DNA of 64,000 nucleotides from the NCBI RefSeq assembly GCF_054482595.1, contig NZ_CM137008.1; one strand, written 5' to 3'. Under the pieces are notes generated by a model. That model saw nothing but the letters and a program-made list of their open reading frames with translations, did not search any database and was not told the DNA's origin. A program made the translations under genes and the position numbers. Shown piece by piece: positions 8,843-40,935 of the stretch (the stretch's first letter is position 1; each line of letters starts with the position of its first letter).

Positions 8843-8883
8843 CATAGTGCACTGGTAGCTATAGAGCCAGGGGCGGTAGCTTG
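8843..8883 (+). promoter_or_regulatory. JUMPstart element with ops (GGCGGTAG) antitermination site upstream of the O-antigen operon
   Basis: cactggtagctatagagccaggggcggtagcttg; ops core ggcggtag at 8872-8879, about 80 bp upstream of wzx; RfaH-dependent operons carry this element. Confidence 0.65.
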
Positions 8884-15069: not shown

Positions 15070-15217
15070 ATTTTTTTAAGTCATATTGAGTAATTGAGTA
15101 ATAGTTTTCCTATGTAATCAAAATTAACTATCAGTTTTATTATTAGTTGGGTAATATCTCTCTATATCTCAACCAGTGCAGTCATTGCATGGTGAACACC
15201 CCTGACAGGAGTAAACA

Positions 15218-16624
15218 ATGTCAAAGCAACAGATTGGCGTCGTCGGTATGGCAGTGATGGGGCGCAACCTTGCGCTCAACATCGAAAGCCGTGGTTATAC
15301 CGTCTCTATTTTCAACCGTTCCCGTGAAAAGACGGAAGAAGTGATTGCCGAAAATCCAGGCAAAAAACTGGTTCCTTACTATACGGTGAAAGAGTTTGTT
15401 GAATCTCTGGAAACGCCTCGTCGCATCCTGTTAATGGTGAAAGCAGGTGCAGGCACGGATGCTGCTATTGATTCCCTCAAGCCATACCTCGATAAAGGTG
15501 ACATCATCATTGATGGTGGTAATACTTTCTTCCAGGACACCATTCGTCGTAACCGTGAACTTTCTGCCGAAGGCTTTAACTTCATTGGTACCGGTGTTTC
15601 CGGTGGTGAAGAAGGCGCGCTGAAAGGGCCTTCCATTATGCCTGGTGGCCAGAAAGAAGCCTATGAACTGGTTGCACCGATCCTCACCAAAATCGCCGCA
15701 GTGGCTGAAGACGGTGAGCCATGCGTTACCTATATTGGTGCCGATGGAGCAGGTCACTATGTGAAGATGGTTCACAACGGTATTGAATACGGCGATATGC
15801 AGCTGATTGCTGAAGCCTATTCTCTGCTTAAAGGTGGCCTGAATCTTTCCAACGAAGAACTGGCGCAGACGTTTACCGAGTGGAATAACGGTGAACTGAG
15901 CAGCTACCTGATCGACATCACCAAAGATATCTTCACCAAAAAAGATGAAGACGGTAACTACCTGGTTGATGTGATTCTGGATGAAGCAGCAAACAAAGGT
16001 ACGGGCAAATGGACCAGCCAGAGTGCGCTGGATCTCGGCGAACCGTTGTCGCTGATTACCGAGTCTGTGTTTGCTCGTTATATCTCTTCTCTGAAAGATC
16101 AGCGTGTTGCCGCATCTAAAGTTCTCTCTGGCCCGCAAGCACAGCCAGCAGGCGACAAGGCTGAGTTCATCGAAAAAGTTCGTCGTGCGCTGTATCTGGG
16201 CAAAATCGTTTCTTACGCCCAGGGCTTCTCTCAGCTGCGTGCTGCGTCTGAAGAGTACAACTGGGATCTGAACTACGGCGAAATCGCGAAGATTTTCCGT
16301 GCTGGTTGCATCATCCGTGCGCAGTTCCTGCAGAAAATCACCGATGCATACGCCGAAAATCCGCAGATCGCTAACCTGCTGCTGGCTCCGTACTTCAAGC
16401 AAATTGCCGATGACTACCAGCAGGCGCTGCGCGATGTCGTCGCTTATGCGGTACAGAACGGTATCCCGGTTCCGACCTTCGCCGCTGCGGTTGCCTATTA
16501 TGACAGCTACCGCGCCGCAGTTCTGCCTGCGAACCTGATCCAGGCACAGCGTGACTATTTCGGTGCGCATACTTATAAGCGCATTGATAAAGAAGGTGTG
16601 TTCCATACCGAATGGTTGGATTAA
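15218..16624 (+). CDS. gnd: 6-phosphogluconate dehydrogenase, decarboxylating
   Basis: 468 aa; NADP-binding N-terminus ([16 protein letters not shown]) and 6PGDH signature region; conserved position downstream of the O-antigen cluster. Confidence 0.95.
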
Positions 16625-16650
16625 TCTGATCTAACCAACAATAAATTTAG

Positions 16651-16679
16651 GCCCGGCGTATATTGCGCCGGGCTTTTTG
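16651..16679 (+). terminator. Rho-independent terminator-like hairpin after gnd (or left-end hairpin of the IS200-like element)
   Basis: ggcccggcg-tatatt-gcgccgggc followed by ttttt. Confidence 0.45.
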
Positions 16680-17390
16680 TGCACAGAAAACCCCCAGCTA
16701 GGCTGGGGGTTCCGGAAAGCTATCAGCTTTGAGCCAGTTATTAAAACCCCTTTTGATTTGTTAAAACACCTTGCGGTCTGGCAACTGCAAGTGTCAAACA
16801 AGAAATCAAAAGGGGGTCCCAATGGGGAACGAAAAGAGCTTAGCGCACACCCGATGGAACTGTAAATATCACATAGTTTTTGCGCCAAAATACTGAAGAC
16901 AAGTGTTCTACAGAGAGAAACGTAGAGCAATAGGCAGTATTTTGAGAAAGCTGTGTGAGTGGAAAAGCGTACGGATTCTTGAAACTGAATGCTGTGCAGA
17001 TCATATCCATATGCTTGTGGAGAGCCCGCCCAAAATGAGCGTATCCGGCTTTATGGGATATCTGAAAGGGAAAAGCAGTCTGATGCTTTACGAGCAGTTT
17101 GATGATTTGAAATTCAAATACAGGAACAGGGAGTTCTGGTGCAGAGGGTACTACGTCGATACGGTGGGTAAGAACACGGCGAAGATACAGGATTACATAA
17201 AGCACCAGCTTGAAGAGGATAAAATGGGAGAGCAGTTATCGATTCCCTATCCGGGCAGCCCGTTTACGGGCCGTAAGTAACGAAGTTGGATGCAAATGTC
17301 AGATCGTGTGCGCCTGTTAGGGCGCGGCTGGTAAGAGAGCCTTATAGGCGCATTTGAAAAACCTCCGGCTATGCCGGAGGATATTTATTT
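16680..17390 (+). mobile_element. IS200-like insertion sequence (IS200/IS605 family), about 710 bp, ends approximate
   Basis: Encodes an IS200-type TnpA; the gnd-ugd spacer is about 958 bp, roughly 710 bp longer than the approximately 250-bp spacer recalled for K-12; hairpins near both ends (aacccccagc-tag-gctgggggtt at about 16689-16711; cctccggc-tat-gccggagg at about 17361-17379). Boundaries uncertain by about 40 bp. Confidence 0.7.
16822..17280 (+). pseudogene. tnpA: IS200 transposase TnpA (HuH Y1 family) with in-frame TGA at codon 25
   Basis: Translation from ATG 16822 gives MGNEKSLAHTRWNCKYHIVFAPKY then TGA (16894-16896), then RQVFYREKRRAIGSILRKLCEW...HIHML... in the same frame to 17280. 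Canonical IS200 TnpA has Arg at this position, consistent with CGA to TGA. Confidence 0.7.
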
Positions 17391-27052: not shown

Positions 27053-27088
27053 ATAAAAAAGCCCCCGGAAGGTGATCTTCCGGGGGCT
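27053..27088 (-). terminator. his attenuator terminator
   Basis: Plus strand aaaaaaaa-gcccccggaag-gtgat-cttccgggggc; on the minus strand an 11-bp GC-rich stem followed by a U-run, between hisL and hisG. Confidence 0.75.
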
Positions 27089-27151
27089 TTCTCATGCGTT
27101 CATGCACCACTGGAAGATCTGAATGTCTTCCAGCACACATCGCCTGAAAGA

Positions 27152-27202
27152 CTAGTCAGGATGATGGTGATGATGGTGGTGTTTAAATTGAACGCGTGTC
27201 AT
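27152..27202 (-). CDS. hisL: his operon leader peptide
   Basis: Reverse complement reads ATG ACA CGC GTT CAA TTT AAA CAC CAC CAT CAT CAC CAT CAT CCT GAC TAG = MTRVQFKHHHHHHHPD*, seven consecutive His codons. Confidence 0.92.
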   Translation of the reverse strand: MTRVQFKHHHHHHHPD

Positions 27203-29870: not shown

Positions 29871-30136
29871 AGAAAAATTATTATGACAAGCCTCTCATTC
29901 TCTTGTCATTTCCCCCCCATTTAGGCACAATGCGCCGCTGTCAAAAAATGACTAAAAACCGACGTTTCATCAGCGTCGGTTATTTTTTGCTTCAAACCAA
30001 TCATTCATACCAAGAGGCCGGGCTTCGTACCGGATAGATATTTACTAAAAATCGACAGTTGTTGTCGCTGAGGAATCCAAAAAAATGGGGCAATTTTTTG
30101 CTTACGCGACGGTTATCACCGTAAAGGAGAATGACC

Positions 30137-31495
30137 ATGTCGCATAACGTTACTCCAAACACCTCTCGCGTGGAATTGCGTAAAACGCTTACGTTAGTTC
30201 CGGTTGTAATGATGGGTCTTGCCTATATGCAGCCGATGACGCTGTTTGATACATTTGGTATCGTTTCAGGCCTCACGGATGGTCATGTGCCGACAGCCTA
30301 TGCGTTCGCATTGATTGCGATCCTGTTTACGGCTCTGAGCTACGGGAAGCTGGTTCGCCGCTATCCTTCTGCTGGCTCTGCATACACTTACGCCCAGAAA
30401 TCCATTAGCCCGACTGTCGGCTTTATGGTGGGTTGGTCTTCTCTGCTCGACTATCTGTTCGCGCCGATGATCAACATTCTGCTGGCGAAAATCTATTTTG
30501 AAGCTCTGGTGCCTTCCATCCCATCGTGGATGTTTGTGGTGGCGCTGGTGGCCTTTATGACCGCCTTTAACCTGCGTAGTCTGAAATCCGTAGCGAACTT
30601 CAACACTGTAATCGTCGTGTTGCAGGTAGTGCTGATCGCGGTGATTCTGGGCATGGTTGTTTATGGCGTATTTGAAGGTGAAGGCGCGGGTACGCTGGCG
30701 AGCACTCGTCCGTTCTGGTCTGGCGATGCGCATGTTATCCCGATGATTACCGGGGCGACAATCCTGTGCTTCTCCTTTACCGGCTTTGACGGCATCAGCA
30801 ACCTGTCGGAAGAAACCAAAGATGCAGAGCGCGTGATCCCGCGTGCGATTTTCCTGACCGCGCTGATTGGCGGCATGATCTTCATCTTTGCAACTTACTT
30901 CCTGCAGCTGTACTTCCCGGATATCTCTCGCTTTAAAGATCCGGATGCGTCACAGCCTGAAATCATGCTGTACGTTGCGGGTAAAGCGTTCCAGGTTGGC
31001 GCGCTGATCTTCTCCACCATTACCGTACTGGCGTCCGGTATGGCGGCGCATGCAGGCGTAGCGCGTCTGATGTACGTAATGGGGCGTGACGGTGTGTTCC
31101 CGAAAAGCTTCTTCGGTTATGTACACCCGAAATGGCGTACTCCGGCGATGAACATCATCCTGGTTGGCGCGATTGCCCTGCTGGCAATCAACTTCGACCT
31201 GGTAATGGCTACGGCGCTGATTAACTTTGGTGCGTTGGTGGCGTTCACCTTCGTTAACCTGTCGGTTATCTCGCAGTTCTGGATCCGTGAGAAGCGTAAC
31301 AAGACGCTGAAAGATCACTTCCAGTATCTGTTCCTGCCGATGTGTGGTGCGCTGACCGTTGGTGCGCTGTGGGTTAACCTGGAAGAAAGCTCAATGGTTC
31401 TGGGTCTGATCTGGGCTGCTATCGGTCTGATTTACCTGGCTTGCGTCACCAAGAGCTTCCGTAACCCGGTTCCGCAGTACGAAGACGTAGCATAA
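30137..31495 (+). CDS. plaP: Putrescine importer (APC superfamily amino-acid/polyamine permease)
   Basis: 452 aa from [16 protein letters not shown]; 12-TM APC-type permease. Confidence 0.88.
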
Positions 31496-31673
31496 TCATC
31501 TTTTCTAATAATCAACCGGAGTCGAATGAATATTTGGCTCCGGTTTTTTTATTCTTTTTTATCGAAATCCTCATTAATAACCATTTGTTCTAATTTAGAG
31601 AATTTGGTTATTGGTCTGCATTCCACCAGTCATGAATAATTTCCTCATTAACATTCATCTGGTTAATTAATTT

Positions 31674-32732
31674 ATGTTTTCAATGATATTAAGCGGGCTA
31701 ATTTGTGGTGCTCTGCTGGGATTTGTCATGCAGCGTGGGCGTTTTTGCCTGACAGGTGGTTTTCGCGATATGTATATCGCGAAAAATAATCGCATGTTTT
31801 ACGCCCTGCTGATTGCAATTTCGGTACAAAGCGTGGGGGTTTTTGCGTTAATTCAGGCGGGCCTACTGACTTACGAAGCCGGGGCGTTCCCGTGGCTTGG
31901 TACTGTTATAGGTGGGTATCTTTTCGGGCTGGGAATTGTTCTGGCGGGTGGATGTGCCACCGGGACCTGGTATCGCGCGGGTGAGGGATTGATCGGCAGT
32001 TGGATCGCGCTTTTCACTTATATGGTGATGAGTGCGGTGATGCGTTCTCCACACGCCAGTGGTTTAAATCAAACCTTGCAGCACTACACTACTGAACATA
32101 ACTCTATTGCTGATACTTTTAATTTGTCTGTGTGGCCGTTGGTTGCCGTTTTGCTGGTGATAACGCTCTGGGTGGTGATGAAAGAGTTGAAGAAGCCAAA
32201 ACTCAAAGTCGCGACCTTACCGCCGCGCCGAACCGGGATCGCTCATATTCTGTTTGAAAAACGCTGGCATCCCTTTGTCACTGCTGTACTCATCGGTTTG
32301 ATTGCGCTTTTAGCCTGGCCCCTGAGTGAAGCAACCGGACGCATGTTTGGGTTAGGAATCACTTCCCCAACGGCCAATATTCTGCAATTTCTGGTCGCGG
32401 GTGACGTGAAATACATTAACTGGGGCGTTTTCCTGGTGTTAGGGATCTTCGTGGGGTCATTTATTGCAGCCAAAGGGAGCCGTGAGTTCCGCGTTCGCGC
32501 AGCTGATGCACAAACAACATTACGTAGCGGGTTAGGTGGTGTACTGATGGGCTTCGGTGCCAGTATTGCAGGTGGTTGCTCTATCGGTAATGGACTGGTT
32601 ATGACTGCAATGATGACCTGGCAGGGCTGGGTTGGCCTTGTATTTATGATTCTCGGTGTCTGGACTGCGTCCTGGCTTGTGTATGTTCGACCGCAGCGTA
32701 AGGCGCGACTGGCGACTGCTGCGGCAAATTAA
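31674..32732 (+). CDS. yeeE: Thiosulfate transporter (YeeE/YedE family)
   Basis: 352-aa polytopic membrane protein with duplicated Cys-containing GGCATG/GGCSIG motifs. Confidence 0.88.
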   Translation: MFSMILSGLICGALLGFVMQRGRFCLTGGFRDMYIAKNNRMFYALLIAISVQSVGVFALIQAGLLTYEAGAFPWLGTVIGGYLFGLGIVLAGGCATGTWYRAGEGLIGSWIALFTYMVMSAVMRSPHASGLNQTLQHYTTEHNSIADTFNLSVWPLVAVLLVITLWVVMKELKKPKLKVATLPPRRTGIAHILFEKRWHPFVTAVLIGLIALLAWPLSEATGRMFGLGITSPTANILQFLVAGDVKYINWGVFLVLGIFVGSFIAAKGSREFRVRAADAQTTLRSGLGGVLMGFGASIAGGCSIGNGLVMTAMMTWQGWVGLVFMILGVWTASWLVYVRPQRKARLATAAAN

Positions 32733-32745
32733 GTAAGGTGTAAAG

Positions 32746-32973
32746 ATGGCGATTAAAAAGCTGGATGTGGTGACGCAGGTCTGTCCGTTTCCACTCATAG
32801 AAGCAAAAGCAGCACTGGCAGAAATGACCAGCGGCGATGAGTTGGTAATTGAGTTTGATTGCACCCAGGCAACAGAAGCAATCCCACAATGGGCGGCAGA
32901 AGAAGGACATGCCATCACCGATTATCAGCAGATTGGCGATGCTGCGTGGAGCATCACCGTTCAAAAAGCCTGA
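32746..32973 (+). CDS. yeeD: TusA-like sulfurtransferase
   Basis: 75 aa with the TusA CPxP motif (LDVVTQVCPFPLIEAKAAL). Confidence 0.88.
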   Translation: MAIKKLDVVTQVCPFPLIEAKAALAEMTSGDELVIEFDCTQATEAIPQWAAEEGHAITDYQQIGDAAWSITVQKA

Positions 32974-33015
32974 CCCAACATTGTCCTCCGCCGTATCAGC
33001 GGCGGAGGCTTCAAA

Positions 33016-34443
33016 CTAGACAATCTCTTCCGCGTACTGCCAAAGCGCTTTTAACAGCGCCACTTTTTCTTTATCGTCGGCATACTGCTGCGCCAGCATC
33101 TGAATCTCTTCTGCATAGCCTTGTAAAAACTCGGGTGTGAATACCTGGCGGCGGTGCTCCAGCCAGCGTTGCTGCTCGGCATAATCCAGCGTCCCCGGGA
33201 AGTTGCGCGCCCGATAATTGAACAACAGCTTTTCAATCCGTTTATCGACAAAAGTGATATCCAGTGCCGGTAAATTACGCGGCTCGGTTTCCAGCACAAT
33301 TTTCATTGCTGCACGATCGGCGTCACTGAAAAAGCCGTTATAAAGCTGTGCATCCACGTTATCTGAAGGCGTAAACGGTTCGGCTTCCGCGAATATCGCC
33401 ACCACTTTTTCGCGCACTTGCGGATTTTCACGCAGAATTTTCAGGTTATCGAGGCAATGCTGACGATTAATTCCCAGTCGGTCGGCATCTTCCGGGCGTA
33501 GCGTATTCGCCTGGGCCAGCACCGGACATTTATTGATGTGCACCAGCTTAACCGGAACGGCGGCGTTATCGCCAAGATCGGTTTTTGCGGTATATAAACG
33601 CTCGCGCAATGTGTCGCTATCCAGTTCCAGTAATGGCGAAATGTCTCCTGCCAAATCCACCATAATTACGGCATTGCGATTTTCAGGATGCCACGCCAGC
33701 GGTGCCACCCAGCTGGTGTTGCCGCGCCATGCCCCAAACATTCCGGAAACGTGCACCAGGGGTTTCATCTGCGGAACATCAATCAACGCCATCAGTTTGT
33801 GTTTATTACGATGGGTAAAGAGATAATCAAACAGGCGTGGCTGACGCGTTTTTACCAGCTTTGCCATCGCAATAGTGGCGTACACATCAGCCATCGCATC
33901 GTGGGCGTTGCTATGTTCAATACCATTCGCTTTGGTTAAATGCTCAAGGCGAAAGCTCGGTAGACCGTCATCATTTTCAGGCCAGTTTATTCCTTCCGGG
34001 CGCAGGGCATAACAGGCACGCATAACATCCAGTAAATCCCAGCGCGAGTTATCATGCTGCCAGCTCCAGGCGTAAGGATCGTAGAAATTACGATAAAAAA
34101 CGTTGCGTGTGACTTCGTCGTCGAAACGCACATTGTTGTAGCCCAGAATACAGGTCTTCGGTACGGTAAAAAGCGAGTGAATACGGGCGGCAAACGCGGC
34201 TTCGTTTTCTCCTTTCGACCGTGCTTCCTGCGGGGTAATACCGGTAATTAATACTGCTCCAGGCTGGGGTAAATAGTCATCAGCGGGCTTGCAGTAAAAG
34301 ACTTCGGGTTCGCCGATGACATTGAATTCGCTATCGGTGCGAATGGCTGCGAACTGTGCAGGGCGATCTAACGCGGGGTGCGTGCCAAAGGTTTCGTAAT
34401 CGTGAAACAAAAAGGTAGATTGTTGCTTACCGTCATTCATCAT
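33016..34443 (-). CDS. sbcB: Exodeoxyribonuclease I
   Basis: 475 aa from MMNDGKQQSTFLFHDYETFGTHPALDRPAQFAAIRTD (DnaQ-like exonuclease fold). Confidence 0.93.
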   Translation of the reverse strand: MMNDGKQQSTFLFHDYETFGTHPALDRPAQFAAIRTDSEFNVIGEPEVFYCKPADDYLPQPGAVLITGITPQEARSKGENEAAFAARIHSLFTVPKTCILGYNNVRFDDEVTRNVFYRNFYDPYAWSWQHDNSRWDLLDVMRACYALRPEGINWPENDDGLPSFRLEHLTKANGIEHSNAHDAMADVYATIAMAKLVKTRQPRLFDYLFTHRNKHKLMALIDVPQMKPLVHVSGMFGAWRGNTSWVAPLAWHPENRNAVIMVDLAGDISPLLELDSDTLRERLYTAKTDLGDNAAVPVKLVHINKCPVLAQANTLRPEDADRLGINRQHCLDNLKILRENPQVREKVVAIFAEAEPFTPSDNVDAQLYNGFFSDADRAAMKIVLETEPRNLPALDITFVDKRIEKLLFNYRARNFPGTLDYAEQQRWLEHRRQVFTPEFLQGYAEEIQMLAQQYADDKEKVALLKALWQYAEEIV

Positions 34444-34651
34444 TAGGTTAAATCCGTTATTTCTGCTGTCTGCCAGAGTATCAAATATCACCGTGCTAAT
34501 CAGCTTTAGCGCCACAATTTGGCAGCGAGTGGCAACAGATCATGTCAGATAAAAATGAGAGGGTAGTCACATTTTCTTGCACTTTATTCCAGCCAGTTCA
34601 TAAGTATTTCCGTAAAAAGAACAGCTATTTGAAACTCCTGAGGGTTTGCTG

Positions 34652-35818
34652 TTGAAACGCCGTCTTATTATTGCTGCTTCTTTGTTCGTTTTTAACTTAT
34701 CGTCTGGTTTTGCGGCGGAAAACATTCCTTTTTCACCTCAGCCTCCAGAGATTCATGCCGGGTCCTGGGTATTGATGGATTACACCACCGGTCAGATCCT
34801 CACCGCGGGTAATGAGCATCAACAGCGCAATCCCGCCAGCCTGACAAAGCTGATGACGGGTTATGTCGTGGATCGCGCTATCGATAGTCATCGCATTACG
34901 CCAGACGATATTGTCACCGTGGGGCGCGATGCGTGGGCGAAAGATAATCCGGTGTTTGTCGGTTCTTCACTGATGTTTTTGAAAGAGGGCGATCGCGTAT
35001 CGGTACGTGATTTAAGCCGTGGTTTAATTGTGGATTCCGGAAATGACGCTTGTGTTGCTCTGGCTGACTATATTGCCGGTGGGCAACGGCAGTTTGTTGA
35101 AATGATGAACAACTATGCCGAGAAGCTGCATCTCAAGGATACGCATTTTGAAACAGTGCATGGTCTGGATGCACCTGGCCAGCATAGCTCGGCTTATGAT
35201 TTAGCTGTGCTTTCTCGCGCTATCATCCACGGCGAGCCCGAGTTTTATCATATGTACAGTGAGAAAAGCCTCACCTGGAACGGTATCACTCAGCAAAACC
35301 GTAACGGGTTATTGTGGGATAAAACCATGAATGTTGACGGCCTGAAAACGGGTCATACTTCTGGTGCCGGGTTTAATCTCATTGCTTCGGCTGTAGATGG
35401 GCAGCGTCGTCTCATTGCAGTGGTAATGGGGGCTGACAGTGCAAAAGGTCGTGAGGAAGAGGCAAGAAAATTACTGCGTTGGGGGCAACAAAACTTTACT
35501 ACGGTGCAAATTTTGCACCGTGGGAAAAAGGTCGGAACGGAACGCATCTGGTATGGCGATAAAGAAAATATCGCCCTGGGAACGGAACAAGAGTTCTGGA
35601 TGGTGCTACCGAAAGCCGAAATTCCACATATCAAAGCCAAATATACCCTTGATGGTAAAGAACTCACCGCGCCAATTAGCGCCCATCAGCGGGTAGGGGA
35701 AATTGAACTTTATGACCGTGATAAACAGGTGGCGCACTGGCCGCTGGTTACCCTGGAATCTGTCGGGGAAGGCAGCATGTTTTCCCGGCTGAGTGATTAT
35801 TTCCACCATAAGGCCTGA
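34652..35818 (+). CDS. dacD: D-alanyl-D-alanine carboxypeptidase (PBP6b)
   Basis: Signal peptide, SxxK (NPASLTKLM), SGN (VDSGND) and KTG (GLKTGHT) motifs. Probable TTG start at 34652 with GAGGG Shine-Dalgarno 8 nt upstream. Confidence 0.88.
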   Translation: MKRRLIIAASLFVFNLSSGFAAENIPFSPQPPEIHAGSWVLMDYTTGQILTAGNEHQQRNPASLTKLMTGYVVDRAIDSHRITPDDIVTVGRDAWAKDNPVFVGSSLMFLKEGDRVSVRDLSRGLIVDSGNDACVALADYIAGGQRQFVEMMNNYAEKLHLKDTHFETVHGLDAPGQHSSAYDLAVLSRAIIHGEPEFYHMYSEKSLTWNGITQQNRNGLLWDKTMNVDGLKTGHTSGAGFNLIASAVDGQRRLIAVVMGADSAKGREEEARKLLRWGQQNFTTVQILHRGKKVGTERIWYGDKENIALGTEQEFWMVLPKAEIPHIKAKYTLDGKELTAPISAHQRVGEIELYDRDKQVAHWPLVTLESVGEGSMFSRLSDYFHHKA

Positions 35819-35936
35819 CCTTTCTTTTGCAGCAGACTGGCAGGAGTGCGAGTCTGCTCGCATAATCAACACTCATTCCTTGTGGTTTTAATATTGCAAC
35901 TATACTGTATATAAAAACAGTGTTAGTGGAGGCGTC

Positions 35937-36410
35937 ATGAACTACGAGATTAAGCAGGAAGATAAACGTACCGTTGCAGGTTTCCATCTTGTTGGCCCGT
36001 GGGAGCAGACGGTAAAGAAAGGTTTTGAGCAGTTGATGATGTGGATAGATAGCAAAAATATTGTGCCGAAGGAGTGGGTTGCTGTCTATTACGACAATCC
36101 GGATGAAACACCCGCCGAAAAATTACGCTGCGACACCGTCGTGACGGTACCGAATAACTTTACGCTCCCCGAAAACAGTGAGGGCGTCATTCTGACAGAA
36201 ATTTCAGGTGGTCAGTATGCGGTGGCGGTGGCTCGTGTAGTCGGTGATGATTTTGCTAAACCCTGGTATCAGTTCTTTAATAGCCTCTTGCAGGACAGTG
36301 CCTATGAAATGTTACCAAAGCCCTGCTTCGAGGTTTACTTGAACAATGGCGCGGAAGATGGGTACTGGGATATCGAAATGTATGTTGCGGTGCAGCCAAA
36401 ACATCACTAA
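35937..36410 (+). CDS. sbmC: DNA gyrase inhibitor (GyrI-like domain)
   Basis: 157 aa ([30 protein letters not shown]). Confidence 0.9.
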
Positions 36411-36607
36411 TTCATCTCAGGGCGGTGTGTTGACGCGAAGACCACTCTTTTTTTGAAAGTGAAAAGAGTAAGATGCGCCTTTCAATTTTTTCGCTCCTGC
36501 CGGGAAATTACACTGTTCCCGGTTTGTCCGTCGGATAATTCAGAGGCGCGCCTTCTGGCCGACAGATGAGTTATGAGCGCTTTTAATCTTCATTACGGAG
36601 TTTCTGT

Positions 36608-37666
36608 GTGCGTGCCGATAAGTCATTAAGCCCGTTTGAAATCCGGGTATACCGCCATTACCGCATTGTGCATGGTACTCGGGTCGCGCTGGCATTCCTG
36701 CTCACTTTTCTCATTATCCGCCTGTTTACTATCCCGGAAAGCACCTGGCCGCTGGTCACCATGGTGGTGATTATGGGGCCAATCTCGTTCTGGGGGAACG
36801 TTGTCCCTCGTGCCTTCGAACGTATTGGCGGTACGGTGTTGGGTTCGATTTTAGGTCTTATCGCTCTGCAACTGGAGTTAATTTCGTTACCGCTGATGTT
36901 AGTCTGGTGCGCGGCGGCGATGTTTCTTTGCGGTTGGCTGGCGCTGGGCAAGAAACCGTATCAAGGATTATTGATTGGGGTGACGCTGGCAATTGTTGTG
37001 GGTTCCCCGACAGGTGAAATTGATACGGCGTTATGGCGAAGCGGCGATGTGATCCTCGGCTCTTTACTGGCAATGTTGTTTACCGGTATCTGGCCACAAC
37101 GCGCGTTCATCCACTGGCGCATTCAACTGGCGAAAAGTCTGACCGAGTATAATCGGGTCTATCAATCGGCATTCTCACCGAACTTACTCGAACGCCCACG
37201 TCTGGAAAGCCATCTACAAAAACTGCTGACCGATGCCGTGAAAATGCGTGGGCTGATTGCGCCCGCCAGCAAAGAAACCCGTATTCCAAAATCGATATAT
37301 GAAGGTATCCAGACCATTAATCGCAATCTGGTTTGTATGCTGGAGTTGCAAATCAATGCATACTGGGCCACGCGCCCCAGCCATTTCGTGTTATTGAACG
37401 CGCAAAAACTTCGTGATACCCAGCACATGATGCAGCAAATACTGCTGAGCCTTGTTCATGCGCTGTACGAAGGTAATCCGCAGCCGGTTTTTGCCAATAC
37501 GGAAAAATTGAACGATGCTGTGGAAGAGCTGCGTCAGTTGCTGAATAACCACCATGACCTGAAGGTTGTGGAAACACCAATCTATGGTTATGTGTGGCTG
37601 AACATGGAAACGGCACATCAGCTTGAGTTGCTATCGAGTCTGATTTGCCGGGCCTTGCGCAAATAA
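36608..37666 (+). CDS. yeeA: Inner-membrane protein, FUSC/ArAE-like family
   Basis: 352 aa; N-terminal TM bundle plus soluble C-terminal domain; conserved position. Confidence 0.8.
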   Translation: MRADKSLSPFEIRVYRHYRIVHGTRVALAFLLTFLIIRLFTIPESTWPLVTMVVIMGPISFWGNVVPRAFERIGGTVLGSILGLIALQLELISLPLMLVWCAAAMFLCGWLALGKKPYQGLLIGVTLAIVVGSPTGEIDTALWRSGDVILGSLLAMLFTGIWPQRAFIHWRIQLAKSLTEYNRVYQSAFSPNLLERPRLESHLQKLLTDAVKMRGLIAPASKETRIPKSIYEGIQTINRNLVCMLELQINAYWATRPSHFVLLNAQKLRDTQHMMQQILLSLVHALYEGNPQPVFANTEKLNDAVEELRQLLNNHHDLKVVETPIYGYVWLNMETAHQLELLSSLICRALRK

Positions 37667-37837
37667 TTCCTGAACTTCAGAATCATCTTGCTGCTGCTTC
37701 GATTCAGCAAGGATAAAGGGTATGATAGTGAAAAGGGATAAAAGCATTGTCATCTGCGGCAGCTATGAGTAATGTTGGCCCTAACGAATAGCGGTTGCTT
37801 AAACGAATCCGACTCTCACATTATCAGGGGTATAAAA

Positions 37838-38167
37838 ATGGAAACTACCAAGCCTTCATTCCAGGACGTACTGGAATTTGTTCGTCTGTTCCGTCGTAAG
37901 AACAAACTGCAACGTGAAATTCAGGACGTTGAGAAAAAGATCCGTGACAACCAGAAGCGCGTCCTGTTGCTGGACAACCTGAGCGATTACATCAAGCCAG
38001 GGATGAGCGTTGAAGCAATCCAGGGCATCATCGCCAGCATGAAAGGTGACTATGAAGATCGCGTTGACGATTACATCATCAAAAATGCCGAGCTCTCCAA
38101 AGAACGCCGCGATATCTCCAAAAAGCTGAAAGCTATGGGCGAAATGAAAAACGGCGAAGCGAAGTAA
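37838..38167 (+). CDS. yeeX: UPF0265 protein YeeX
   Basis: 109 aa from [41 protein letters not shown]; start trimmed from ORF 37772. Confidence 0.88.
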
Positions 38168-38267
38168 TTCCTGTTTTATTCAATGAGGGTTGCCCGGCAA
38201 CCCTCAGTGCTCATTGATTCTTATCTGTGTATCACCGTCATCATTCTCATCTGAGAACCTATCGAAA

Positions 38268-38480
38268 TTAGCGACAGCCTTCTTCTGTATGCAGCAAGGC
38301 AAAAACTTCTGTAACTCCATTGTTATTAACCGCACTGGTTACTAACACGTTGTGCGCTCCAGCTTCCCGTAACCAACATTTCACCAAAGATGTTTGTTCC
38401 ATACTGGCTAAATCTGCTTTGGTTACTACTCCAATGACCGGGTGATTCATGGCCCGGTAGGGCGTTTTTACCTCTAATTC
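38268..38480 (-). pseudogene. yoeF-like fragment (C-terminal remnant of a possible small GTPase; family assignment weak)
   Basis: C-terminal about 65 codons (HPVIGVVTKADLASMEQTSLVKCWLREAGAHNVLVTSAVNNNGVTEVFALL) look like the end of a small GTPase; the N-terminal part of the 118-aa ORF is just the antisense of the IS66 remnant. Confidence 0.35.
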
Positions 38481-38482
38481 CT

Positions 38483-38650
38483 GCTTCAGCGCTGAGATTC
38501 CTGCTTGTTGCCGGAAAAGCAGGCACCTGCCGTCTGAACGGTATCGATCCGGAAGCGTATCTGCGCCATATTCTGAGCATACTGCCGGAATGGCCCTCCA
38601 ACCGTGTTGACGAACTCCTGCCATGGAACGTAGTTCTCACCAATAAATAA
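38483..38650 (+). mobile_element. IS66-family transposase C-terminal remnant
   Basis: Plus-strand frame encodes ...FLLVAGKAGTCRLNGIDPEAYLRHILSILPEWPSNRVDELLPWNVVLTNK*, the conserved C-terminus of IS66 TnpC with an internal deletion; no upstream transposase body. Confidence 0.5.
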
Positions 38651-39064
38651 GCGTCAATACGGTGCTCCGTTGACGCTTACTTTAATCCGTTTTCTGAGCT
38701 TAGATTTTTCTGTTCCTACCCAGACCGTGGATTTGGAATTCATTTTTTGTCAGGTCAATGCTAATCGTTAAAACGGCCATAACGCACCTCCACTGGAAGG
38801 TTTATCAGTAATATCCTACCGTTGCTTCATGGTCGGGGCGTCCATTCCATTATTATCGGTTTTCCTTTCTGTTTATAAATGAAAACGCCAGCTGTATTCA
38901 GGCTGGCGTCAGGGGAAATGAAGCCTGTTGAGTGAGATTCACCGGTTCTGGTGCAGAAGCTGCAGATGGCGCAGGGTAAGGACATCTTCTCTTGCCTGCT
39001 TAATACAGGACAACAGTGCTGTTTCTGTGGTTAATGGCACTATACCCTGCATCACTGCATTGTC

Positions 39065-39259
39065 TTACAGCAACTGGTGAGGGCTGGCATAAGTTGCCGG
39101 TGTTTCGGTAGAGTCACGGTCATCCACCACGCGGAGTGAATAACCGTTTTCAGCGGCCTTATTAATCAGTTCAGTGATATTAACACCATCAATGTCAACG
39201 ACAATGTGCCCCATATCCAGCGCCTGTACGTTAACGCTGTCGGCTTCCAGTGTCATCAT
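39065..39259 (-). CDS. yeeW: YeeW-like small protein
   Basis: 64 aa; start ATG overlaps the cbtA-frame stop (ATGA); last gene of the CP4-44-type backbone. Confidence 0.55.
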   Translation of the reverse strand: MMTLEADSVNVQALDMGHIVVDIDGVNITELINKAAENGYSLRVVDDRDSTETPATYASPHQLL

Positions 39260-39629
39260 TTCGCCTCCGGATACTTACCCAGGGTAATGTTATTTACCGT
39301 TCTGTAATTGTCGCGGGTCATCAGGCCGGTCGCCCTGCGAGCCCGGAGGATATCGATGCTGTTTATTAACTGAGAGCGGGTACAGGCGCTGAATCCCGGC
39401 TGGTCGGTAGCACCAGCGCGTATTTTTCCACGAGAAAGTTCACCGCATCACACAGTGAAATGCCTGCCTCAATATGCTGCTCAATCACACGTTCATCGGC
39501 AAAAGGTGTGTCATTCTGTGTGAGGCCATAGTGCTGGTCCAGCAGTCGGGACAGCAGTATCTGCCAGATTTCAACAGGAGACGGGCGAGAACTGGCCGCC
39601 TGCCCGGGTAATACAGGTAATGTTTTCAT
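39256..39629 (-). pseudogene. cbtA: CbtA (YeeV) cytoskeleton-binding type IV toxin, disrupted by a -1 frameshift
   Basis: N-terminus [36 protein letters not shown]...FLVEKYALV reads for 73 codons and stops at codon 88 (39366). The next frame encodes [50 protein letters not shown] with no stops, ending in the ATGA overlap with yeeW; consistent with a 1-bp deletion near 39409-39411. Confidence 0.75.
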
Positions 39630-39717
39630 ACTGAAGATTTTCCTGATATGCAGATATAAAAATGGAAAAGTGGCGTGGTGAAAACACCAGGCCGTAGCAG
39701 AAGGCTATTCTGGAGAG

Positions 39718-40086
39718 TTAATTTTTCATTTCGGGCGTCGGATAAACAGCCAGATAAACGTAACCACAACTGCTGAGGGTATCGGCTTTGCAGGTCAGCC
39801 CTTTTGCATACAGCGTGACGGTATGCTGATGGCGGGGATTCAGTTCACCGCTGGTGAGCATGAGTTCCAGTTGTTTCATCAGCAGCGGAAAGGCCTGGTC
39901 CAGGTGGTACGCATCTGCATCGCTGAACAGGCCTCTGATACCGGCGCGGTCGGCAAGGTAATGCAACCGGTTACCCTCCTGCACCAGACGTGCCCCGAAA
40001 CAGGGCGTCACGGTGCAGGGCAGCCCCCACCAGGGGCGGTCGTGATTGTCGTCGGGAAGTGTTGTCCCGGGGAGTGTGTCTGACAC
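39718..40086 (-). CDS. cbeA: CbeA (YeeU) type IV antitoxin
   Basis: 122 aa (MSDTLPGTTLPDDNHDRPWWGLPCTVTPCFGARLVQEGNRLHYLADRAG); immediately upstream of cbtA. Confidence 0.85.
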   Translation of the reverse strand: MSDTLPGTTLPDDNHDRPWWGLPCTVTPCFGARLVQEGNRLHYLADRAGIRGLFSDADAYHLDQAFPLLMKQLELMLTSGELNPRHQHTVTLYAKGLTCKADTLSSCGYVYLAVYPTPEMKN

Positions 40087-40159
40087 GATAAAATCCTTAC
40101 AGAAAATCGGCTAAGAATGGTCCGGTAGTGGCGATAATTCTGCTCATCAGAATTCCCAC

Positions 40160-40381
40160 TCAGTTCAGGGTGACGCTCATCAGCCGGACATACGGACCAA
40201 AACTGTCCTTACGGCGTTCAGCAAACACGGCCAGCACACCGGGAATATCCTGCACTTCACGACCGGTATACGCTTCAGCACTGCCGTGCCAGCGGTATTT
40301 ACCGGTACAGAACGGAAAAAGACGGGATGTCGGATGTTGTTGGTGAATACGCATGGCTTCACCACGGGTGATAATTTTCAT
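40160..40381 (-). CDS. yeeT: YeeT-like protein (DUF987)
   Basis: 73 aa (MKIITRGEAMRIHQQHPTSRLFPFCTGKYRWHG); conserved backbone gene. Confidence 0.8.
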   Translation of the reverse strand: MKIITRGEAMRIHQQHPTSRLFPFCTGKYRWHGSAEAYTGREVQDIPGVLAVFAERRKDSFGPYVRLMSVTLN

Positions 40382-40443
40382 AATGGGATACCTCTGAAGA
40401 CAGAAGATAAAAGTGAAAACAGGTGTGATGTGGTTGTGAAGGG

Positions 40444-40935
40444 TTAAAGCAGACCATGTTCGGCAAAGGAGAAAACCTGGTTGCCACCGACTATCAGATG
40501 GTCCGGCACCCGGATATCCACCAGGCCCAGTGCCTGTACCAGACGTTCGGTGATAAGCCGGTCTGCCTTACTGGGTGTGACTTCACCGGACGGGTGATTG
40601 TGTGCCAGTACCACGGCAGCGGCATTGTGGTACAGGGCGCGTTTAATCACTTCCCGGGGATGGACTTCCGTGCGGTTGATGGTGCCGGTGAAGAGGGTTT
40701 CACCGGCAATCAGCTGATTCTGGTTGTTCAGATACAGCACCCGGAATTCTTCACGCTCCAGTCCCGCCATGTTCAGAATCAGCCATTCCCGTGCTGCACG
40801 GGTGGAGGTGAAGGCCACGCCGGGTTCATGAAGATGGCGGTCCAGGGTTTTCAGGGCCCGTTGAATGAGGCTGCGCTCGCCGGGCGTCATCTCTCCGGGC
40901 AGAAAGGAAAGTTGTTGCATTGTGCTTCTCTCCAT
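40444..40935 (-). CDS. yeeS: RadC-like JAB-domain protein (YeeS family)
   Basis: JAMM-type HNHPSG motif (VVLAHNHPSGEVTPSKAD); start may be the internal MQQLSFLPGE. Confidence 0.8.
   Translation of the reverse strand: MERSTMQQLSFLPGEMTPGERSLIQRALKTLDRHLHEPGVAFTSTRAAREWLILNMAGLEREEFRVLYLNNQNQLIAGETLFTGTINRTEVHPREVIKRALYHNAAAVVLAHNHPSGEVTPSKADRLITERLVQALGLVDIRVPDHLIVGGNQVFSFAEHGLL

Follow-up and report, generated by a model that had tools for sequence, protein, structure and literature searches.

The type IV toxin gene cbtA at 39256-39629 on the minus strand of the window, i.e., the whole 64-kb stretch of DNA (64,000 nucleotides) analyzed here, is very probably a genuine, heritable frameshift pseudogene allele that represents ordinary decay of the toxin. 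One base has been lost from codon 74, and the same loss is shared by a large part of the E. coli genomes that carry this locus. The elements of the module are arranged as follows:

39256..39629, minus strand: cbtA pseudogene (CP4-44 type IV toxin gene with a 1-bp deletion), 374 nt
Between 39409 and 39410: cbtA deletion site as placed by alignment; a plus-strand C, the coding-strand G of codon R74, is absent
39366..39629, minus strand: truncated cbtA open reading frame (ORF), 87 codons plus stop, from the ORF listing and its translation
39256..39408, minus strand: untranslated remnant of cbtA codons 75-124 with the original TGA, in the -1 frame relative to the start codon
39065..39259, minus strand: yeeW, 64 aa, 100% identical to K-12 YeeW
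39718..40086, minus strand: cbeA (yeeU) antitoxin gene, 122 aa, 99.2% identity to K-12 CbeA (D108G); WP_001285585.1 in identical sequence
40160..40381, minus strand: yeeT (DUF987), identical to K-12
40444..40935, minus strand: yeeS (RadC-like JAB domain), 100% match to K-12 residues 1-148

Nucleotide alignment of 39256-39629 with cbtA of K-12 MG1655 (99.5% identity) contains a single substitution and a single gap. The substitution at alignment column 113 turns CTG into CAG and thereby L38 into Q, and the gap at column 221 falls on the G of the CGT codon for R74. A tblastn search with K-12 CbtA places residues 1-73 at 39629-39411 (98.6% identity) and residues 75-124 at 39408-39259 (100% identity), with an E-value of 2e-65 for the CbtA match, and it detects no second cbtA copy in the 64-kb window. 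From 39414 down to 39256, the adjacent frame is translated without a stop, and the original TGA (39256-39258) overlaps the yeeW start codon (39257-39259) in an ATGA that can be read directly from the sequence. The initial annotation had claimed that cbtA carries a 1-bp deletion, that a CbtA-like C-terminus continues in the adjacent frame to the ATGA junction, and that the sequence 'ggtacgcac' would repair the gene. The one gap and the two-frame tblastn match bear out the first of these, the translation and the 100% tblastn match the second, and the proposed repair does restore the frame exactly, with the missing C lying between 39409 and 39410. Homology that continues in another frame after an indel, together with a premature stop, is what the RefSeq pipeline takes as a frameshift pseudogene, and cbtA has both. 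The gene thus reads as a CbtA family member by descent, but as a pseudogene.

Single-base indels are the commonest assembly error and cbtA is intact in K-12, and the initial annotation had offered a sequencing indel as an alternative to decay, in which case the real gene would be an intact 124-codon cbtA. We consider this next to impossible. At the site, the context changes from GTGCGTACC to GTGCTACC and contains no homopolymer. Complete E. coli records with an exact match to a 61-mer centered on the deletion number 1,503 and originate from many laboratories, compared with 1,814 records for the corresponding 62-mer in which the base is restored, and RefSeq describes the gene as 'frameshifted'. 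The exact 87-aa product is encoded on at least 1000 public contigs from several archives and has GenBank accessions of its own (e.g., ABJ01408.1). In a sample of 36 CP4-44-type loci, taken at even spacing down the ranking of full-length matches (≥98.9% identity) to a query of 941 nt extending over the CP4-44 junction, 17 have the deletion (941-nt span) and 19 are intact (942 nt). Sequencing error was rejected on these population data, namely the 61-mer counts, the 17 of 36 loci and the contigs with the truncated product. The comparisons that the initial annotation had proposed, with K-12 and with other strains, thus yielded one SNP and one gap in the former case and a widely shared deletion in the latter. 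Its reading of natural decay is supported by the identical deletion in many independent complete genomes and by the RefSeq flag; the decay is real, but it is a common, species-wide allele and not particular to one strain.

Approximately 45% of CP4-44-type loci, and some 28% of complete E. coli genomes, have the deletion allele. Among the matches listed for window positions 39060-40090 against complete genomes, the cbeA-cbtA-yeeW segment (1031 nt) is 100% identical in at least 30, including ATCC 11775 and APEC O1. Carriers comprise these two strains, O157:H7, ATCC 8739, IAI39 and an O111:H2 strain. The lesion is already known in the sense that every carrier examined has a RefSeq frameshift annotation: identical sequence with the same 374-nt extent is flagged 'cbtA, frameshifted', with cbeA and yeeW annotated as normal genes in ATCC 11775 and APEC O1, and the flag stands at the tmaR/yeeA-flanked locus in ATCC 11775, APEC O1, O157:H7 PV15-279, ATCC 8739, WP4-S18-ESBL-08 and strain 133. 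No discussion of the frameshift polymorphism was found in the literature searched. As a discovery, the frameshift of an ordinary and common allele is of little importance. It does matter for the assumption that every E. coli has a functional CbtA, which is wrong for nearly half of the carriers of the CP4-44 locus, among them the type strain ATCC 11775, APEC O1, O157:H7 and ATCC 8739.

Starting at the same codon as before, ribosomes reading the gene without the G of codon R74 would produce CbtA residues 1-73 followed by 14 unrelated residues, and in the conceptual translation the 14 out-of-frame residues are indeed followed by a stop. Pfam PF06755 matches this 87-aa ORF at model positions 1-73 of 112 only, which falls short of the whole-domain match in one frame by which the CbtA family is recognized. 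Alignment of 27 family members with 69-94% identity to repaired CbtA gives 43 invariant columns, 20 of which fall within residues 74-124. The invariant block after the frameshift (R74-T75-D76, S91-IDILRAR-98, G102-L103, Y109, I115, and G118) is not translated in frame, and the C-terminal block characteristic of the family is consequently missing from the 87-aa product. As the truncated product is missing residues 74-124, where conservation within the family is highest (RTD, SIDILRAR, GL), a loss of toxicity appears likely, and the product would most likely fail as a competent toxin against both FtsZ and MreB.

A residual division-inhibiting activity of the 87-aa product is nevertheless possible. 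R15 and F65 have been mapped genetically as the contact residues for MreB and FtsZ, respectively (Heller et al., 2017; PMC5624674). Both contact residues are kept in the product. The AlphaFold2 model of repaired CbtA contains three helices (18-34, 46-55, and 59-69) with pLDDT values of 75-88, all of which are retained upon truncation, and residues 78-124 are modeled at a pLDDT of 40-50. No solved structure matches CbtA by sequence, and NCBIfam holds no HMMs for CbtA, CbeA or YeeW. C-terminal truncations of YeeV reportedly still gave cell elongation. The word 'inactivated' in the initial annotation therefore holds for the frame, which is broken, but the loss of activity is what we infer for a gene in which the predicted folded N-terminal domain, with R15 and F65, is preserved.

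It is rather unlikely that the 87-aa product goes beyond such residual activity and represents a functional, attenuated or re-purposed N-terminal CbtA domain, binding FtsZ and/or MreB and kept by selection within a working toxin-antitoxin pair. Such a role would be compatible with the retention of R15, F65 and the whole confidently folded helical core, with the filamentation that C-terminally truncated YeeV is said to cause, and with the high frequency of an allele that keeps cbeA beside it. The start codon, upstream region and cbeA are also unchanged with respect to K-12, and the stretch 38500-40896 differs only by five SNPs and the deletion. However, 20 of the 43 invariant family positions are lost, and the locus has decayed further in strain LR-33, where cbeA is gone and an IS1 lies beside the cbtA remnant. 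The common variants, moreover, alter invariant or near-invariant residues, which is more in keeping with relaxed constraint than with maintenance. Among the variants of the truncated product are D40N (418 contigs), L38Q (at least 1000 contigs), V19I, and R15H, and in other deletion carriers the downstream substitutions in the old frame are R96L and A97T, two of two at invariant residues. Because R96L and A97T fall on such residues and upstream variants (D40N, V19I, L38Q, and R15H) occur as well, there is a weak indication, from the few distinct alleles compared, that constraint may be relaxed in deletion carriers.

The frame could also be restored at the ribosome. In that case, low-level -1 frameshifting would regenerate a near-full-length toxin and the deletion would act as an expression attenuator, a proposal that we regard as very improbable. 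The direction needed is indeed -1. Five codons ahead of the deletion there is an A5 run (GAA-AAA-U), at which the -1 frame is open, and 5 nt beyond this run begins a 6-bp inverted repeat (GCUGGU...ACCAGC). No canonical X XXY YYZ heptamer is present, however, the local RNA fold is no better than that of shuffled sequence (z = -0.17), and the inverted repeat also occurs in the intact K-12 allele. A shift at the A5 run would further replace YALVR, including the invariant R74, by IRAGA, and the substitutions R96L and A97T at invariant residues are what is expected if the old frame is no longer read. The candidate programmed -1 frameshift site in cbtA was rejected, as only the A5 run and the weak 6-bp inverted repeat were found.

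On the plus strand, and hence antisense to cbtA, the same inverted repeat forms a terminator-like hairpin at 39399-39417 (GCTGGT-CGGTAGC-ACCAGC followed by GCGTATTTTT) whose loop holds the deletion site. The stem is shared by the intact allele, where the loop measures 8 nt, and the position of the hairpin around the deletion site is probably coincidental. A scan of the whole 64-kb window at gathering thresholds found no Rfam family near 39-40 kb, and a scan of the window for tRNA genes found none.

As to the origin of the decayed allele, the gap occupies the same alignment column throughout a set of at least four haplotypes, distributed over at least three chromosomal islands. The first haplotype, found in O157:H7 and ATCC 8739, has the deletion and is otherwise identical to K-12 cbtA. 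The second combines the deletion with L38Q and is that of the 64-kb window, ATCC 11775 and APEC O1. The third carries D40N among five substitutions and sits outside the CP4-44 locus. The fourth carries T24/T27, and its 13 differences all lie upstream of column 187, with 10-11 of the 13 being synonymous; it looks like a recombination tract derived from a paralogue. The islands with the deletion allele have tmaR, the gsp type II secretion genes or cadCBA as neighbors. Those with the D40N haplotype are complete and include one by the gsp cluster and another by cadC-cadB-cadA; their gene order is Ag43-like autotransporter, DUF905, DUF932, antirestriction, RadC, DUF987, CbeA, frameshifted CbtA, full-length DUF5983, DUF957, and DUF4942.

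In GCA_047262375.1 and GCA_900449145.1, the cbtA deletion was observed in paralogous and more complete islands, one by the gsp cluster and one by cadC-cadB-cadA, each with an Ag43-like autotransporter upstream.

Given this distribution, the base might have been lost repeatedly at a mutational hotspot, independently in different lineages and islands, which the number of haplotypes (at least four) and islands (at least three) would allow, as would the position of the site within the loop of a short inverted repeat. We judge this improbable. No repeat or homopolymer favors the loss of exactly that base, and among the sampled matches of the 61-mer search those with a flanking mismatch (91.9-98.4% identity) all keep the base, whereas those with 100% identity all lack it; the more divergent cbtA paralogues among the sampled matches have kept it in every case. 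The T24/T27 haplotype is free of differences around the deletion and has them exclusively upstream of column 187, a pattern expected of a recombination tract. Because the same gap column recurs on several haplotypes and islands, and matches with mismatched flanks keep the base, the deletion most likely originated once and was then spread by homologous recombination or gene conversion. The deletion allele would accordingly be old, or mobile between paralogous islands by means of homologous recombination and gene conversion.

The island end between 38500 and 40896, from yeeS to an IS66 fragment, differs from K-12 by 5 SNPs and the deletion (approximately 0.2% divergence). Divergence changes abruptly near 38500 and amounts to 1-3% in the adjoining core genes at 30000-38500 (yeeA, sbmC, dacD, and others), which points to recent recombinational exchange or homogenization of the island end across E. 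coli lineages.

The initial annotation described cbeA and yeeW as intact, which is correct for cbeA in that the gene is complete and for yeeW in that it equals the K-12 copy, but the K-12 yeeW is itself already truncated. Its product corresponds to the N-terminal DUF5983 domain only, the full-length gene of less decayed islands encoding 162 aa, and by this homology yeeW is a remnant of the 162-aa DUF5983 gene. A Shine-Dalgarno sequence (GGAGG) can be read just upstream of its ATG on the minus strand (...CCGGAGGCGAAATGATG...). Translation of the frameshifted cbtA ends 107 nt upstream of yeeW, and therefore translational coupling via the ATGA overlap is lost. A possible programmed frameshift has been described for the full-length DUF5983/yeeW genes located beside cbtA, and not for cbtA (2026; PMC13294457). 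Further remnants lie between yeeW and the core genome:

38939..39031, minus strand: DUF957 gene fragment; coordinates from the annotation of ATCC 11775 (100% identical over 39060-40090)
38513..38650, plus strand: C-terminal fragment of an IS66-family transposase at the island/core junction; coordinates from annotation transfer
About 38268-38450: EutP/PduV fragment at the junction

The DUF957 fragment is homologous to a gene of 80 aa that follows full-length DUF5983. From 38268 to 39259, the right end of the island is a string of remnants, with an internal deletion between yeeW and the DUF957 fragment. In LR-33 (NZ_AP027523.1), the frameshifted cbtA remnant is down to 293 nt and abuts IS1A, and cbeA, yeeT, yeeS and yeeW have disappeared, which is a further stage of decay at the same CP4-44 locus.

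The cbeA gene lies 88 nt upstream of cbtA in the same orientation, which is the layout of a type IV module, and matches Pfam PF06154 over positions 1-100 of 101 (E = 5e-53). Next to the frameshifted cbtA, cbeA is an orphan antitoxin. Since the island end has diverged from K-12 by only about 0.2%, the intact state of cbeA and yeeW needs no selective explanation. We infer that cbeA may either simply not yet have decayed or be useful in trans, as CbeA neutralizes the paralogous toxins YkfI and YpjF. CbeA-family antitoxins neutralize non-cognate CbtA-family toxins, and CbeA, YafW and YfjZ each neutralize all three K-12 toxins (PMC5371832). A role of CbeA in trans is thus plausible, with a median of 3 cbeA/cbtA-type segments per genome.

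The CP4-44 locus of E. coli strain 133 (NZ_CP028638.1; 2019900-2022360) has a frameshifted cbtA and an intact cbeA. A second island of this strain (132500-138500) has an intact 124-aa CbtA-family toxin (WP_000854712.1) with 110 of 124 residues identical to K-12 CbtA, and the antitoxin belonging to this toxin is cut to 54 aa by an ISEc31 insertion. This reciprocal arrangement, in one genome, supports the proposed action of CbeA in trans.

A more elaborate scenario can be built on the same observations, in which the deletion would be a favored 'disarmed toxin' allele that is gene-converted between islands and across phylogroups, with CbeA as a guardian in trans and possibly with a residual FtsZ/MreB-binding 87-aa domain. 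We consider this scenario unlikely. Even so, an allele occurring on multiple haplotypes and islands, together with strain 133, provides a natural system in which to test whether orphan type IV antitoxins are retained for protection in trans.

The window is collinear with K-12 2076.3-2099.8 kb, running through yeeS, tmaR, yeeA, sbmC and dacD on to the his operon, and therefore the cbtA copy described here is the true CP4-44 copy and not a paralogue. The right end of CP4-44 is recognizable by the passage from yeeS/yeeT to tmaR-yeeA, the yeeW remnant, and the IS66 and EutP/PduV fragments, as in K-12 and ATCC 11775.

The window aligns to K-12 over 17385-40896 (from the gnd end of the gnd-ugd-wzzB-his stretch to yeeS) and over 15191-16678 (within K-12 gnd). 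Upstream of 15191 there is no K-12 alignment, consistent with a different O-antigen cluster. Matches at Rfam gathering thresholds are naRNA4 (2230-2300), JUMPstart (8845-8883), STnc490 (16689-16812), the histidine operon leader (27053-27176), and STnc240 (29916-29990). Over 40100-64000, the best match in the genome collection is 99.8%, and none reaches 100% in the island interior. Transfer from a 99.8%-identical genome places DUF932, antirestriction, two hypothetical proteins, a patatin-like phospholipase, RdcB-family, dynamin-family and GTPase genes in this interior (approximately 41400-64000), along with IS100 (istAB), an inovirus Gp2-family protein, zinc-ribbon proteins, and a defective ISL3 transposase.

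Among known systems, the cbeA-cbtA pair of the K-12 CP4-44 (yeeU-yeeV; b2004/b2005) occupies the same locus in the same order, yeeS-yeeT-cbeA-cbtA-yeeW, and is 99.7% identical from cbeA to yeeW (1022 nt). YeeS, YeeT and YeeW are identical between the two and CbeA differs by one residue, whereas cbtA of the window lacks one base in codon 74, leaving an 87-codon ORF, and carries L38Q in addition. The island interior also differs, as the window lacks flu and yeeR of K-12 and instead contains DUF932, antirestriction, patatin-like, RdcB and dynamin-family genes. The RefSeq pseudogenes EAS44_RS10510 (ATCC 11775), APECO1_RS11150 (APEC O1), ECpv15279_RS14500 (O157:H7 PV15-279) and F1719_RS08970 (ATCC 8739) share the identical deletion, the 374-nt extent and the locus; those of O157:H7 and ATCC 8739 have L38, in contrast to Q38 in the window.

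YagB, encoded in CP4-6, has been described as an orphan antitoxin of K-12 (Wen et al., 2017; PMC5371832) and is likewise a CbeA-family antitoxin with no working cognate toxin beside it. The two cases differ in that the toxin gene is absent beside YagB, whereas here it is still present as a pseudogene with one lesion. Finally, ykfI-yafW (CP4-6), ypjF-yfjZ (CP4-57) and the CbtA copies of other islands belong to the same Pfam families and follow the order DUF932-antirestriction-RadC-DUF987-antitoxin-toxin-DUF5983. The toxins of these paralogous modules are mostly intact, but the copies by gsp and cadCBA have the same 1-bp deletion as the cbtA gene of the window.
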